A stretch of DNA of 63,617 nucleotides, the filler included, from Stramenopiles sp. TOSAG23-6 (taxonomy: Eukaryota), in NCBI GenBank assembly GCA_900128565.1. It is 11 parts of 11 records of this genome, joined end to end, with 100 filler letters (N's around TTAATTAATTAA, not from the genome) between each part and the next. Parts side by side here need not be neighbours in the genome. Positions count along the whole stretch, not along the records: positions 29,014 to 34,712 come from LT636851.1; 10 more parts are not named here. One strand, given 5' to 3'. The translations under genes were made by a program, and so were the position numbers. Positions within the stretch are counted from its first letter, which is position 1. Every line of letters starts with the position of its first letter. Under the pieces are notes generated by a model. That model was not told where the DNA came from. It ran no database searches and saw only the letters and a program-made list of their open reading frames with translations. Below are positions 17,411 to 52,070 of this stretch, piece by piece.

Positions 17411-18510
17411 GGATACCCGTTCCGTAGGAGCTTTACAGCAGATACAATCTTTTCGCCGGAAAGGCATTCCAGTCATCATTACTAATGGTTTTCAGGACTC
17501 TTTCTCGTCTTGGATAAAACAAGATGGTAGCCTCAATTTGGACTATCTATCCAAACTATTAGGGAATGAACACGTTCCTGTGAAAGTTTATCGTCAGACA
17601 AAGTATTGTGATGATTCTAGGAGTGAAAGTGCACGTTGTAGTGGCGCAAAAAAAGAAAGTATTGTACGTATGACATTTCAAGAATTTCTCAGTGGCTTTT
17701 GGATTCCAGGGAAGGAAAGTGGCTATCTACACCAATGGCAGTTTCCTTTATCAGAGACTGCAAACAAAAATATTCGGCATTTTGTTCCTAAAACTCAATT
17801 TTGTTCATGGGCGGAACCGGAACCTTCACTAATTTACATTGTGATAAGGGTGGCTTATCTATAATAATTGCTCCTATAGTTGGCACCAAAGAAGTTATTG
17901 CAGTTCATCGTAGTGATGGGAAGATCATGGGCTCTAGTCAGTCTTATAGTACATTTTCAAAATTATTTTTTTCACCTAAATGTTTTTTGTACCAAAGTTT
18001 GTACCTAATGAATATTTTTTTGAAATTTTTTTTTCACAAGTGTATGTGTACCTAGTAATCCATTAAAAACCAACTTGGTAACTCATCCACTTTTCGGTTT
18101 TGCTCGTTCCTGGAAATGCACAGTTATCCCTGGCGACATTTTGTTGATGCCTGCTGGGACTTATCATTCTGTGAAGAACAAAACGCCATGTTTCTCATAT
18201 CACCGTATGCACATTTTCATTATGAATTTCAAATTTATTTTTTTTTCATACGAAATTTTGTACCTAACAATTTTTTTTCGATTGTGTTTTTTTTTTTTCA
18301 CAATACATGCATCTGGATTCACTAAATTTGCCATGGCTATTTGATTCATACCGTCGATCTGAAGTCTGCGAAATTGATCATCCGTTGATCATATGGAATT
18401 TGACTCATGGAGTTATGAATCAAACTGATAATTGGTGTGAAAAAAATAGAAAAATAGATTTGAAACATAGAAATGACTTTCAGCAACAGCAACAAAAAAG
18501 TTTTTTTTGA
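17411..18510 (+). CDS. JmjC-domain protein, 5'-truncated, apparent frameshift near 17800; introns about 17949-18045 and 18209-18308
   Basis: GIPVIIT, YLHQW, FMGGTGTFTNLHCD (HxD) and PGDILLMPAGTYHSVKN. Confidence 0.8.
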
Positions 18511-28913: not shown

Positions 28914-29066
28914 NNNNNNNNNNNNNNNNNNNNNNNNNNNNNNNNNNNNNNNNNNNNTTAATTAATTAANNNNNNNNNNNNNNNNNNNNNNNNNNNNNNN
29001 NNNNNNNNNNNNNTACAAAATTTCGTACGAAAAAAAAATTCGAATTTGAAAAAAAATAAAACGTAC

Positions 29067-31186
29067 ACCGGAAGCAAATTGAGTTGTTGCATCAACATCT
29101 TTCACGGTGACAGATGTACTGCCTTTGGTAAAAGATCCATCTACTAAAACTCCAGTATTTGTTTTCGTAACACTAACATTCACTTCATCAATGGAATCGA
29201 GTAACTCTAGTGTTGTTTTTACTGTAACGGGTGTTGCATCAAAGGATATATTGGATGTAGTTTGTGAATAGTTACTACCTGTGAATGATATCGTAAATGT
29301 TCCACCCGTAGCATCACAAGTTAATGTTTGCTCTTCATTTTTCTGCCCAATGGTTATTGGATCATCCCCAGATGGACAAGTCTGAAGTTCACATTTATAA
29401 CCATAAAAATCAGAGAATTCACCTTTAAAAGGGCCATGCCACTGTCGCGTTTTGCAACTACAACCTCGTATCATATCAGCATCCCATGAATTTTGACTAT
29501 CTCCATAAGAAACACTATTTAAATTGGCTAAAGAGCGCATACTCAAACATTCACCTGAAGCAGCGGATGCATCTTTGTCAGTAACACCAGCACCAGTACA
29601 TATATGTAAATTATTGTCAGAGAAACATCGAAGTAATTCACATGCATTTCCTTCAAAAGGACCATCACATATACATTTCCCAGTTGCTCTATCACACTCT
29701 CCACGATTAGAACATTCCCATTCTCCATTTGCAGAAAATGTATGTGCTTGGTCAGACGAGGACGGTTCAGCAAACCACGGTTTACCTGTTGGACATTTTT
29801 TATGTTGACAAAACACACCTGAATAACCACCATCACAGACACATGAATATCCTGTAGTAAAATCACAGAATCCATGTCCCCAGCAGGGTAATGTGGGTCG
29901 CATGGAGAAAAGAAAAATATTTTACATTCGAAATTTCGTTAGGTACGAAATGTAGTACAAAAAAAATAAATTTGAAATTCAATTTTGAAAACGTACATCC
30001 TTTGATCATACGGAACTGGGCAATTGTCAGTTGATGCAATTTGACTCTTGTTATAATAACCACAATCACCAACAGTTCCTTCACCACCGGCACCATCCGA
30101 TGATGCAAAACCTGTAAAACATACGCACCCCCCACTGGTACAATATCCACGTATTGTGAAAAATATTTCAAAAAAAATTCGTTAGGTACGAAATTGCGTA
30201 TGAAAACCAAAAAAAAAAATTGAATTAGAAATTCATATAAAACATACACGACCACTACACATTATCCGCTCTCTAGTCCCTGTTGTATCTGGAGTTGTAT
30301 TGATTGTTGCAGAGCCTGTTAGTACTTCAGTATATAGAGGAGGATGAGTTCCAGGATTATGAGTAAATGTTATTTTTGATATAGCACCACCCGATGCGCA
30401 TATAGCGCTACCTCCTGATGTTATACTAACAGTTACTTCTGGAATATTTGCTAAATTTTCCAAGGCTGCTTTTAAATCAGACGCTGTAGCATCACCCGCT
30501 ATTCCTGAAGTTTTTTTACCTCGAAAATTAAGCGTGAAACTTGCACTTGAAGGAACTGCTGAAGTACATTCAATCTGCTGAATCTCGTTTACCTGAGACA
30601 TAGTGAACGGATCATCTCCGAAGGGACAATCTATTTGCAATGAACAGTCGTAGCCTTCTCGACCCTCATCACAAACGCAGCCATAGATCATATCAGCATC
30701 CCAGGGCGTTGAATAGTTGATCCCCAATAAATTCAAATGATTTCCATCAAATTCAGCACCAGCTTCACGCATAGAACGACACTTACCATATCCATTACAG
30801 ACTTTACCGTCCTCGTTGCGTGGACAAGAAAGGCGTTGACACGCTGAACCTTCGAAACCATTTTCACACTTGCACGTTCCAGTTGTTCTATCACAAGTAC
30901 CCATATTACTACACTCTACCCCACTTTGATGAGCGACGTTGGTTTGACTAGCAGAATCTGCCCAGCTTTTACCTGTTGGACAAGCACGTAGAGAACAATC
31001 GCTTCCATGCCAACCGTGTTCACATTCGCATGTTCTGTTCGTGGAACAGTATCCGTGACCACTGCACTTTGTAACGATGCAGTGTGCATAGGCTTTTGGA
31101 AGGGCAGTAGAAAATAAAGAAACTAGAAATATAAAGTCGATGATGCATGCAACAAACACACTTGATTTATGTGTGGATGGCGTCAT
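29067..31186 (-). CDS. Secreted EGF-repeat protein, 3'-truncated; introns 30149-30247 and 29902-29996
   Basis: Signal peptide; CSGHGYC, ECSNMGTCDRTTGTCKC, WDADMIYGCVCD and CPFGDDP modules occur twice. Confidence 0.9.
29902..29996 (-). mobile_element. Introner-family intron, GT-AT
   Basis: AGG AT|GTACGT...CTCCAT|G CGA keeps frame. Confidence 0.82.
30149..30247 (-). mobile_element. Introner-family intron, GT-GT (or GT-AC in the shifted register)
   Basis: CGT|GTATGT...CACAATACGT|GGA TAT TGT restores the EGF motif CSGRGYC. Confidence 0.85.
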
Positions 31187-31665
31187 TTATAATACTTAGT
31201 GCATGTGCCGACTGAATCAGATCAAAATCTATCAATGACTATGCAAGTAAATGTTCTTTTCAAGGGTTCCGTTAGACGTGACAGTTTCATTTTAGGAGTC
31301 GTATATATTTATTAGTAGTAGTATTTCGTGTAAAAAGTGATGTCAACAGAAAATTTGTAAAGATATTTGGGTTTTCATAGATCTGGCACCCACAAAACTG
31401 TCGGTCGAGATCTGGAGTGACTTCAGGGGGTTAGATTCCTCTTTTTGTAAACAGCAGTTGATGAACATATCGTATCATATAAAGGATAACAAAACAGAGA
31501 AGTTTTATTTTTTTTATTTTTTGAAAAAATAATCAGTATATATCAAATATTGTTTGTTCAAATGATATAAATATTGTCAAATTTCAATTTTTTATCAAAA
31601 GTCAAACGTCGAGCCGAATCTTAAGAATAATAAAACACTCAACTTGAATATCTTACTGTAACTAT

Positions 31666-33347
31666 TTACTCTTGTTTTTCAATTTGTTCTATTAATATAT
31701 CATGTCTTAATGATGAATATAACAGATTCCAAACAAGAAGTAGTATAAAAACAATATAAAATGAAGCAGGCAAAATGGCTCTGATATATTCCACATACGA
31801 CTGAACTTCTATTTCTTTTTCTGCAGCCTCATGCTCTAGTTCCTTTACAAGCTCTTCTATTTCTGATGCAAGTAAATCGTCTGAATTTTGTATTTGTTTT
31901 ATCTCATCCTTGTGCTGATTTAAAAGGAAATGAACTCGTGTCACAAGAAAAATAATCGTGAGTGAAGTTAAAAAGCATAAAATCAAAATCCAATGCATCC
32001 ACAATAATGAAGTAACTGGAGGCATTGTACCTGTATTCATACCACCAACAAAAGTCATTGTGGTAAGAAATGCAAATGATGCTGTAGCAATCTGTGCACT
32101 AAAGTGATCATGATGTGATATAAATAGTGAACCTAAAGCCATGGATAAAATAAACCAAAGAGGAACCAACGTATTGCTCACTGGACCCCAGTATTGACGT
32201 GTTACTACAATTGCACCGATCACAAAGCCATCATCTTTCCCTCCATTGAACATGGATGGTTCATTCGTATTGCGTACCGCATATTTACCAGGTGACCATG
32301 CTGTATTTTTTCTTGGTTTTCGTGTTCCTGGTGGATTGTATCCTTTGAGTGAAAGCTCATCTGGTCCATATCTAAATGAGGATAATTTTACTTGAACAAG
32401 TTGTTCATCAAATGGATACCCCCATAAATCAAAATTAACAATAACCTTGACATTCATCCTTTGAACCAACTTGAGATGCCCCTTTTCATGAAAAAGACTT
32501 TCTGTATGAATCTCGGATGGATGAGCTTTGTTACGTGCTTCGATTCCAGGAGTCCATGTACAGTGAAACATTATTTCAAAAATTTGTTTTTTTTGTTAGG
32601 TACATAATTTACTATGAAAAAATAAATTCGGAATTAAAATGATGAAAACGTACATGCAGGCCAACCCTCTTCCGTCATATGAATAAAACCTCTATACTCA
32701 ACATACTCTAAACGCGGATCAAACCATTCTGATTTAATAAGAATATCTAAATCTGCTTGTTGTATTGCCTGATTAATTCCCTGAAATTGCACGAAATCTA
32801 GTCCAACATTAATTACATCTATTTTGCCACTTTTTTTGCTTGGACGATCTTCTGGGTTATAGTGGAGAGGAAAATACATGCCTTCTTCACGAGAAAATGC
32901 CTCGGGAACCATTCCATCAGTCAAGATCTCAGTACCATTTTGATCAGCATTTTTTTGTATAGAAGACTGTTTTTTTTCAGCGGCAACTGCCAAAATATCA
33001 TCAAAATTATATGTTGGTTTTTGTGTTTTGTTTTGAACGTTTCCCTGATTGGTATTCATCACTGTTGCATTCGGTGAAGCAAATCGAAAGTTACCTTTGT
33101 TATTTTCATGTTTTCCTGTATCATGTTGTGACTTTTGTTTGTGCCCAGAATGCTCTGGACGATGTATCCCCGTAGGATTTGTAATCAAGCGCCGTTTATG
33201 TGGTTGTTTCACAAGCAAACTCTCTTCTTCTTCTTTGACCTCTAGAAAGCTCCGTAATTGTTTGGGTTCATCCGCTACAGTAGCTGACGCTGTATAATGT
33301 AAAGAGTATTGTAATAGAAGAATGAATGCGACTTTTGTGTTCAACAT
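31666..33347 (-). CDS. Pentameric ligand-gated ion channel subunit lacking the Cys-loop cysteines; intron 32556-32653
   Basis: Signal peptide, YNPEDRP, EWFDPRL, WTPGI, FDLWGYPFDEQ and four transmembrane helices. Confidence 0.85.
32556..32653 (-). mobile_element. Introner-family intron, GT-AT
   Basis: GCA T|GTACGT...CTGTACAT|GG ACT CCT restores the conserved WxP. Confidence 0.87.
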
Positions 33348-33737
33348 TATCTTTTTCAATGTTGTTATTATTTCTTGTGAATAATTAGAAGAATTACGAG
33401 AATTAATTAGGCTGTTCGATTTGAATTTTGTGTGATAGAAAATTAATCTCATTGTGCCCCTCCAAAGAAAAAATATTTTTTGAAAAAGAATTTTGAATTT
33501 CTCCTTTCAATTTTGGAACAAACCTGTCATCATTTCAGTTAAATTATTATTATTATAATTTAATTGAAATTTTAAAACAGCTCTATATTACTATGACAAA
33601 AAGATTTCACAAAGAGAAAAGTTCAATTCATCGAGACTTGATCAAATTTCAACAGGATTGATTTAAATAAGTTGTTATTCAACCAAAAAGAAAGATATAG
33701 GAAACATATTTATTTCTAGTATAAAGAGAAAAAAAAA

Positions 33738-34669
33738 TTAATTGTACCCAGAAAATGCCTCACTCTCCTCCATTAATTGTTCTTCTTGAGCCATCTGTAG
33801 CAGTAATGGATCATCAAAAAATTTGCTTTGATTCAAGGTTTCACTGAGACCTTTGCGACGACGAGTTTTGACCATAAATTCTCTGGCTAAATCTTGTACC
33901 GGACTTGGCTCTAACGGACGGAGTACAACTGATTGATCGAGAGGATCTCCAGGTACGATTGACCAGTGATCGAACACTTGCATACAGAAAGCAAGTCCTT
34001 GCGTATGTACGCGTAAATCAGTTTCAAAACCAAATGATTCAATAACTGGAATAAATGCATGTACAGTGTAAAATGGGGTACCTGGTCGAGGAACATCACG
34101 AGTGACGTGACCTCGACGTCGAGATAATACTGTATACACAGCAGGAACGGCATCAGGAGGTGCAAGAACTTCTATATAGTAGACAGGTTCCATCAACCGC
34201 GGAGCAGCTACAAGGAACGAAGAATATGCTACGCGACGTGCTGTAGGAATAATCTGAGCGCCACCTCGTAACATCGCACTTTTTGAAATTGCAGCATCTA
34301 CTACATTAAATTTTACATTTCTCATGGGCTCTTCACATAAAGGACCCTCACGGCAAGCCCATTGGAATCCTTGTACGATATGTTCACGTACATTATCCAA
34401 TAAAGTTTTATCAACTTCTCCAGAAAGCGTATCGTCAATTAATACATTTGGTCCTTTTTTTTCACTAGCACCAAAACCCCAGACATTTCGTGCAGCAAGA
34501 AGATCCCAATCATATTTTTTCTGGAAAAAGTCACCAAGACTTTTTTTATCCCAATCAGAATTTATTGCACCAGATTCAATATCTTCGGCAAGTCCTTTAT
34601 CTAACGGTTCTGCAATAAGTGTTAGTTTATTGTGTTTATTTGGTGTTTCTGAAAAACATTGAACAGTTG
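33738..34669 (-). CDS. EFTUD2: U5 snRNP GTPase Snu114, last exon
   Basis: [48 protein letters not shown] and [15 protein letters not shown]; preceded by family acceptor CACAATACAT|. Confidence 0.97.
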
Positions 34670-34865
34670 ATGTATTGTGAAAAAATATTTTTTTTTTTTA
34701 AATTTTTTTTTTNNNNNNNNNNNNNNNNNNNNNNNNNNNNNNNNNNNNNNNNNNNNTTAATTAATTAANNNNNNNNNNNNNNNNNNNNNNNNNNNNNNNN
34801 NNNNNNNNNNNNTACGAAATTTTGTACCTAACGATTTTTTTTTGAAATATTTTTCCAAAATACAT

Positions 34866-51312: not shown

Positions 51313-52070
51313 TTATGAATGTGAAACTGGGGGTGGAGGCCCCTTCATTTCTGATTCATCGACTGGTTTAATACCATGAAAACGATCATAATTAATATGA
51401 CATGCACCTTTAATTCTTTGAACACAACTGACAAAATCATGATCCCAAAAAACTTCACATTGACCTTTTTTATCGAATTTATCTTCAACGTATTGTGAAA
51501 AATTATTTAAAATTTTTTTTTGAAAATTCGTTAGGTACAAAATTTCGTATNNNNNNNNNNNNNNNNNNNNNNNNNNNNNNNNNNNNNNNNNNNNNNNNNN
51601 NNNNNNNNNNNNNNNNNNNNNNNNNNNNNNNNNNNNNNNNNNNNNNNNNNNNNNNNNNNNNNNNNNNNNNNNNNNNNNNNNNNNNNNNNNNNNNNNNNNN
51701 NNNNNNNNNNNNNNNNNNNNNNNNNNNNNNNNNNNNNNNNNNNNNNNNNNNNNAAAAAGGTCAATGTGAAGTTTTTTGGGATCATGATTTTCATCTTTTT
51801 TTTTAGAATGTACATTTAAATGTACATTTAAATGATTTATTGAAGAATGTTTCACTTGTTGATATTCGACACCACCTTGTTCACCTTCTTTTTCAATATG
51901 TCTTTGTAAACATTCTTTAGAAGGAAAAGGTTCTCCATTTGTAGTACTAATGGTTTGAACATCATGTACTGTGAAATATATTGTGTTTTTTTGTTAGGTA
52001 CAAAATTTTTCAAAAAAAATAATTCGATTTTTTTGTAAAAAAAAAAATAAAACATACATGCCCACTAATT
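51313..52070 (-). CDS. Hypothetical protein, 3' fragment; family intron 51964-52057 and a second one ending CAATACGT| near 51489
   Basis: Open frames flank the family introns; interrupted by an N gap. Confidence 0.45.

Follow-up and report, generated by a model that had tools for sequence, protein, structure and literature searches.

The window analysed here, a stretch of 63,617 nucleotides from Stramenopiles sp. TOSAG23-6, carries on its minus strand a gene for an EGF-repeat protein, which is interrupted by an intron that begins with GT and also ends with GT. The features concerned are the following, with the evidence in brackets (splice-site and target boundaries are marked ^).

30149-30247, minus strand: 99-nt GT...GT intron, phase 0, member of a repeated family (reading frame, RNA joint, homologs)
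30248-30249, minus strand: upstream copy of a two-nucleotide repeat, the GT closing the exon (sequence)
30149-30150, minus strand: downstream copy of this repeat, the GT closing the intron and its putative acceptor (sequence, family statistics)
30225-30247, minus strand: donor GTATGT and 5' tag of a subfamily in which GT ends are enriched (the tag has 193 matches in the assembly)
30181-30189, minus strand: conserved box GTACCTAAC; its A at 30182, which lies 34 nt before the intron's 3' end, is the predicted branch point
30151-30163, minus strand: conserved 3' box TTTTTCACAATAC, directly before the variable dinucleotide (family profile, counts of exact boxes)
30248-31186, minus strand: exon 1 of the gene for a tenascin/teneurin-like EGF-repeat protein (stramenopile homologs)
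29997-30148, minus strand: exon 2 of the EGF-repeat gene (reading frame, RNA)
29902-29996, minus strand: neighbouring 95-nt GT...AT intron (reading frame; also skipped in RNA)
29067-29901, minus strand: exon 3 of the EGF-repeat gene (reading frame)
29066, minus strand: third family donor, GT^GTACGT, after exon 3 and cut by the contig end
51488-51550, minus strand: 3' half of a second family intron with a TAC-GT end

On the minus strand the exon/intron junction reads ...TGT AGT GGT CGT^GTATGTTTTATATG..., and the 3' part of the 99-nt intron reads GTACCTAAC ... TTTTTCACAATAC GT^GGA TAT TGT, with the tail CACAATAC before the terminal GT. When this intron and the 95-nt intron at 29902-29996 are taken out, a stop-free frame of 642 amino acids is obtained, containing six EGF-type C-x-x-x-G-x-C motifs. 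One of these, CSGRGYC, spans the junction of the 99-nt intron; its restoration by removal of 30149-30247 was noted in the original prediction and was borne out both by this frame and by RNA contigs that skip exactly 99 nt. Among the best 120 of 334 homologs, of which those bearing organism names are mostly stramenopiles, the motif is present at the junction in 119 and the alignment runs ungapped across it in all 120. The intron ends with GT and thus lacks the 3' YAG of canonical GT-AG introns, and between 30090 and 30185 no acceptor that keeps the frame is an AG. AG acceptors at 30135 and 30112 were considered and rejected, since they are out of frame and the RNA skips 99 nt instead. As is expected of introners, removal of the intron leaves the mRNA length unchanged, as judged from frame, RNA and homologs. 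We conclude that the 99-nt GT-GT intron is real.

Four of 14 sea-water RNA runs (X1, X2, X3 and X5) were compared, as assembled contigs, with positions 29014-34712. Two of the four, from two studies, contain the 99-nt joint: contigs of X1 (study P1, depth 3.9, shorter side 67 letters) and X5 (study P3, depth 2, shorter side 64 letters) skip exactly 99 nt, 30147 being joined to 30247, and the neighbouring 95-nt GT-AT intron is likewise missing from them. No joint at the 99-nt intron was seen among the contigs of X3, and in X2 an unspliced contig extends over 29969-30198 and keeps the 3' half of the intron. The intron near 32560-32650 was not bridged by contigs of the four runs. In X2 and X3 hundreds of contigs from other genes pile up on the intron copies at 29014-29066, 30158-30200 and 32580-32630, which we read as many unspliced or DNA-derived family sequences in those libraries. 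The 99-nt intron is apparently spliced in sea-water RNA. Owing to the local repeat in the flanks, a cut in any of five registers (-1 to +3) yields the same mRNA; the RNA therefore fixes the length of the intron and not its register.

The joined RNA might instead come from a strain without the insertion, the GT-ended copy being harmful or poorly spliced; the RNA does stem from sea-water communities, and at two nearby sites it differs from the window. These same variants, at 30074 and 30089, are nevertheless common to the spliced contigs and to the intron-bearing X2 contig, which makes an intron-less allele unlikely, and the joint in these contigs, of depth 2 to 3.9 and from another strain, probably represents splicing of one haplotype rather than an empty allele. 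The frame around the intron is also intact, 116 exact GT-ended boxes are present in the assembly, and the sampled copies with GT at both places lie in long frames. Absence of splicing is accordingly improbable, and even then an empty site would confirm the insertion of 99 nt with one extra GT.

The 99-nt intron belongs to a family of similar introns of about 100 nt, which, as in introners, occupy many unrelated gene sites. In the assembly, of 21.1 Mb and 6236 contigs, the exact 12-mer box TTCGTACCTAAC occurs 1535 times, and exact TTTTTCACAATAC ends followed by A, G or T and then by G or T occur 1382 times, 116 of them with GT (duplicated contigs included). Family members were sampled from 920 kb of the assembly plus the window (983 kb), and their ends were placed by three profiles blind to the flanking dinucleotides. 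A first pass retained 192 of 412 box candidates, and a larger one yielded 228 non-redundant introns. This survey covers the repeated family, ordinary introns of the genome lying outside it, and its filter is strict: the RNA-confirmed 95-nt intron at 29902-29996 fails it. Two pairs of introns are identical after shortening of homopolymer runs, yet lie at different sites. Outside this genome, none of 182 loci passed the three profiles (among the matches listed for one metagenome and one viral scan); these scans may omit records of TOSAG23-6, and the 182 loci double as a negative control for the filter.

The donors of the 228 introns are GT (212), AT (8), GC (4), GA (3) and GG (1), with the profile GTAYGTTTT; a GC...AT copy lies at 18209-18308 of the window (plus strand). 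Conserved CTAAC is found mostly 33-47 nt from the intron end, and the distance from the predicted branch A to the 3' end has two peaks, at about 34-36 and 43-45 nt. TAC is well conserved before the terminal dinucleotide, which is AT in 176 introns, TT in 14, AG in 11, GT in 8, AA in 6, AC in 5 and another in 8; in 159 strong 3' ends the last base is T in 141 and the base at -2 is A in 139. The proposal that the acceptor tolerates RT was therefore right in that GT ends occur, but too narrow, TT (14) being more frequent than GT (8) and AG, AA, AC and GG occurring as well. The second TAC-GT acceptor anticipated near 51489 is present at 51488-51489, the donor of that intron being lost in the N gap at 51551-51753.

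Several irregular arrangements were noted. Two family copies lie back to back, in tandem or nested, at L105:113 and at L001:7541-7590 (both plus strand). Two 118-nt copies, in L164 and L171, have the same upstream flank and different downstream flanks, possibly as a result of a misjoin or of recombination through the repeated intron. On either side of the N gap, about 37 bases are present as an inverted repeat (window 51436-51472 and 51754-51790); this, together with palindromic or duplicated contigs (C13/C14, C1699-C1706), suggests amplification or assembly artefacts.

The last two bases of the upstream exon were compared with the last two bases of the intron, and the genome-wide correlation on which the original prediction was to be judged is present in the 228 introns and in a second sample. 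Both dinucleotides are AT in 128 of the 228 (AT/AT). Matches other than AT were found in 30 introns, against 3.07 expected and a maximum of 13 in 20,000 shuffles, which treat the family copies as independent although they are related. They comprise TT/TT (13), GT/GT (6), AG/AG (4), AA/AA (3), AC/AC (2), GG/GG (1) and a doubtful TG/TG (1). The 3' end is GT in 6 of 27 introns with an upstream GT versus 2 of 201 without (p = 4e-5), and the TT match alone has p = 1e-13. Position by position, the bases agree in 176 introns at -2 (139.7 expected) and in 194 at -1 (173.3 expected), values reached in 0 of 5000 shuffles, and no excess was seen at -4, -3, +1, +2 or +3. A duplication of 3 or 4 nt was ruled out, as there is no excess of matches at -3 or +1. 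For the second sample, 60 places of the subfamily to which the 99-nt intron belongs gave 49 usable copies (10 were cut short or boxless and one was a duplicate), of which 32 match (14.9 expected), 19 of them with a dinucleotide other than AT (7.5 expected); the main classes are GT/GT (13, one of them already present in the first sample), AT/AT (13) and TT/TT (6). The two-nucleotide repeat at the ends of the family introns is solid, and the locus-specific match of 5' and 3' flanks sought in the target-site duplication test of Gozashti et al. is thereby found. AT-ended copies with mismatched ends have diverged further from the copy nearest to them than AT/AT copies have (median 0.62 versus 0.73, p = 6e-5). 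In the flanks of the 128 AT/AT introns, position -3 is C in 49 and A in 26, and position +1 is G in 71 and T in 19.

In ordinary introns the likeness seen in AG^GT...AG results from two independent preferences. The match in the present family could similarly result from two independent preferences for AT, that of U1 at the donor and that of the acceptor at the 3' end, and be no footprint of a mobile element. Positions A9-U10-G11 of the U1 RNA described below do account for the CAT before the donor, and 128 of the 228 introns are AT/AT. Such preferences cannot, however, yield the TT/TT, GT/GT, AA/AA, AC/AC and GG/GG introns counted above, and the 26 matches that are neither AT nor AG, against 2.8 expected, contradict them unless these are assembly artefacts, so that we find this account scarcely credible.

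The U5, U2, U1 and U4 snRNA genes follow one another head to tail, separated by a few bases, in a cluster that fits within 640 bases (L084:9-645, G000:C1146), and a U6 gene was also found. The U2 branch box, the U5 loop and the U6 ACAGAGA agree with the Rfam consensus. U1, which scores 54 bits, below the gathering score, starts with AAACGUACAUGG where the Rfam consensus has AUACUUACCUGG, its 5' end being altered at positions 2, 5 and 9. This 5' end, AAACGUACAUG, complements CAU^GUACGUUU without a mismatch. Over the 228 donors its mean pairing is 9.54 of 11 positions in the GT register; two bases upstream the mean falls to 4.63, and the Rfam-consensus end reaches 7.06. Its A9, which replaces C9 (L084:349-360), suits the 197 of 228 donors that have T at exon position -1. 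The family thus has GT donors complementary to U1, as U2-type introns do. A search with the Rfam model for a second, canonical U1, in which 41 of 253 candidates were scored, gave the variant alone, on two identical contigs, and the canonical U1 12-mer has 3 matches in the genome versus 2 in the control. The strength of U1 pairing was rejected as the cause of the link between GT and GTAT, as upstream GT goes with the weaker GTAT (15 of 17 versus 7 of 21).

The register was further assessed in introns whose two dinucleotide copies differ, frames being called with the junction bases masked. In 65 such introns with a confident frame, the GT register gives one stop, at a doubtful 3' call, and the register shifted by two bases gives six. 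Introns with a changed upstream -2 base and an AT end are in phase 1, which places the change at the third codon position, in 17 of 29 cases versus 18 of 116 AT/AT introns (p = 7e-6). In four conserved motifs, hand-picked from 46 listed cases and compared with solved homologs, the right residue is kept by the GT register alone in all four: GKST rather than GKSN in the ABC Walker A, NH rather than NQ in SET (a GT-AG member), F rather than Y in the EF-hand, and V (I in the homolog) rather than D in XPC. An MCM exon gave no PDB match. Because U1 pairing, stops, codon phase and these motifs all favour the GT register, the family is cut as GT...NN, and by family membership the 99-nt intron would be cut as GT-GT.

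The original prediction had also raised a GT-AC register, in which the invariant TAC would be the acceptor and the 5' cut would fall two bases before GTATGT, family introns being NN-AC. The good conservation of TAC speaks for it, it gives the same mRNA at the 99-nt intron, and AT-AC introns exist, U2-type ones included (available part of PMC5029451). The AC end that it requires was not borne out on other family members, where it is disfavoured by U1 pairing, by stop codons, by codon phase and by the GKSN, NQ, Y and D that it would place in the four motifs. The family donors GTAYGTTTT are also unlike the U12-type ATATCCTT, the consensus as quoted in the available part of PMC5029451. To this may be added, as a weak argument, that no U12 snRNA was found in the incomplete assembly, where the search control was silent too. 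A GT-AC register at the 99-nt intron is thus unlikely, and as an account of the family we hold it to be very improbable.

AT seems to be the preferred acceptor of the family: where a motif requires CT, TT or TC on the exon side (Walker A, EF-hand, XPC), the intron nevertheless closes with AT. Few rules of splicing are as conserved as that of the 3' AG. Pairing of U1 at the 3' splice site has reportedly been found in fission yeast and denied in budding yeast; in TOSAG23-6, A9-U10-G11 of U1 would fit CAU at the acceptor as well as at the donor, which may serve as a lead. A changed Prp8 was rejected as the source of the loose 3' ends, since residues 1309-1733 (human numbering), a segment presumably around the 3'-site pocket, are near-identical to human, the TNAQRSGLNQIPNRRF stretch being identical. 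The Prp8 gene itself (L086, G000:C84) is a 2021-aa open frame without any intron. In the incomplete assembly U2AF35 was not found with two motifs or among 17 zf-CCCH matches, the one motif match being due to chance, and all matches to the U2AF65 model fell below the cut-off.

The end dinucleotides are not distributed evenly within the family. Five of the six GT/GT introns of the first sample fall into the 10-member subfamily of the 99-nt intron (p = 3e-7). The tag of this subfamily has 193 matches in the assembly. Counted by hand and with duplicates left in, the upstream dinucleotide in the first 100 of these is GT in 32, TT in 13 and AT in 43. Of 38 matched subfamily copies, 23 have the same dinucleotide as their nearest neighbour, where 13.4 would be expected (p = 0.003); with the first four bases masked, the count is 20 against 13.5 (p = 0.023). 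A tree of the subfamily has 12 dinucleotide changes against 16.9 expected (2 of 200 shuffles) and no well-supported branch, and a test of similarity within minus between dinucleotides gives p = 0.076. Inheritance thus accounts in part for the end dinucleotides on the subfamily tree (p about 0.003). No such signal is expected of a sequence-blind duplication; it reflects either a target preference drifting between element lineages or a dinucleotide borne by the element and meeting a matching target. Moreover, the ends are mismatched in 15 of 53 young subfamily copies, so that a clean duplication explains them poorly, although some may be assembly chimeras of the L164/L171 kind. The predicted two-nucleotide target duplication therefore holds as far as the direct repeat is concerned, and is called into question as to its origin by these mismatches and by the inheritance.

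The second of these alternatives, with splicing unchanged, is an element that carries its terminal dinucleotide and joins targets sharing it, either through a 2-bp core or by microhomology-primed insertion; the repeat would then be no sequence-blind duplication, and lineages would keep their dinucleotide. The neighbour sharing, the tree and the gathering of GT/GT introns in one subfamily agree with this, as do the motifs with CT, TT or TC upstream and yet AT at the 3' end; an identical 2-bp core has a precedent in IS607 (available part of PMC6188088). On the other hand, near-identical copies can end differently (AA/AA beside TT/TT and GG/GG beside AT/AT, both at 0.87), in the sparse sample the nearest neighbour has the same dinucleotide in only 3 of 26 non-AT matches, the tree and the within-minus-between test are as weak as stated above, no resolvase or tyrosine integrase domain was found in the incomplete genome, and the same pattern would arise if the target preference of a transposase drifted. 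We consider a carried dinucleotide possible, though doubtful.

Terminal inverted repeats of at least 6 nt were not found in the family, GTA facing TAC alone; C at +4 faces A at -4 in 94 of 228 introns, without covariation. A folded intron joining its own ends was rejected (fold z = -0.74). The genome contains two distinct intact DDE_Tnp_4 (Harbinger-like) frames, L365:389-1651 (G000:C4153) and G000:C2432:2196-2693, of 420 and 508 aa; no family ends were seen near the one of the two frames that was read.

From the observed length of the RNA skip, the family, the two-base match and the sequence of U1, we infer the following course of events, which as a whole we regard as fairly probable. The 99-nt intron would be a young copy of a mobile, introner-like intron, moved by a presumed mobilising enzyme, that inserted after an exonic GT and ended up with GT on either side. 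It would be cut by the major spliceosome, presumably in the ordinary register. The altered U1 would pair with the family donor CAU^GUAYGUUU, and at the 99-nt intron with CGU^GUAUGUUU, through two G-U wobbles, and U2 would pair with the GTACCTAAC (CTAAC) box at the putative branch point. The 3' cut would fall two bases beyond the conserved CAATAC box. The last two intron bases, of which the final one is the better conserved, would be loosely read, AT being preferred and GT and TT accepted. Such loose reading would make possible a GT-GT intron whose acceptor is supplied by the insertion site, with unchanged mRNA length. A bolder version, which is speculative and rather unlikely, would have the major spliceosome swap AG^G for AT^G through a rewired U1 that reads both ends (GT by G-U wobble), combined with a mobile intron that inserts through its own matching two-base core and whose lineages breed AT, GT or TT acceptors.

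The closest parallel in splicing is that of the transposon-derived introns of Fritillaria borealis, which, according to the available parts of PMC13326754 and PMC11282704, mostly lack a 3' AG, often end with AT and repeat at their 3' end the exon end before the donor, as is the case here. In Fritillaria, however, the repeat is a YAY triplet, the donors are mostly non-GT (AG/AC, AG/AT), the U2AF subunits are duplicated and U1 divergence is not used, whereas the TOSAG23-6 family has a two-nucleotide repeat, GT donors in 212 of 228 introns and an altered U1; it thus shows neither the YAY triplet at both ends nor the mostly non-GT donors of the Fritillaria type. Family 5 introners of Chrysochromulina sp., in the available part of 10.1101/2022.06.06.494994, bring their own donor and obtain the acceptor from a 4-bp target duplication. 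The TOSAG23-6 family resembles them in its many copies, its own 5' site, a 3' site from the duplicated target, the lack of a clear terminal inverted repeat and the unchanged mRNA length, and differs in a duplication of 2 bp with ends AT, TT, GT, AA, AC or GG. It appears to work like a donor-carrying introner, with the duplication for which that study tests and without a clear terminal inverted repeat.

In Entamoeba and Mastigamoeba the pairing end of U1 has co-evolved with the donor (available part of 10.1101/2022.06.08.495308), and the Mastigamoeba U1 has the same ACGUAC core as that of TOSAG23-6. As far as that part of the source goes, their changes concern intron positions, whereas the TOSAG23-6 U1 is also changed at position 9 (C to A), facing the exonic T at -1, and the family breaks the 3' AG rule besides. 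Two mobile systems offer analogies only. ISL2EU DNA transposons make a 2-bp AT target duplication in the context A^AT^T (available part of PMC4482050); the 2-bp AT duplication and the two DDE_Tnp_4 frames recall them, whereas C before and G after are commonest in the TOSAG23-6 family. IS607-family elements have no terminal inverted repeats, a shared 2-bp core, which is an invariant GG, and a serine recombinase (available part of PMC6188088); the likeness to them, relevant to the carried dinucleotide, lies in the missing inverted repeats and the 2-bp junction core, and the invariant GG and the recombinase differ. In the literature covered, judged mostly by titles and the starts of abstracts, with supplements and most subscription journals outside, no protist with mainly GT-AT or GT-GT introns was found.

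Gene models that demand AG are wrong for Stramenopiles sp. TOSAG23-6. Its at least about 1,400 near-identical intron ends, which differ almost only in their last two bases, constitute a natural allelic series that bears on how the spliceosome picks the 3' end and on whether U1 takes part in this choice, and in this family intron gain through mobile elements is linked with an altered core snRNA.
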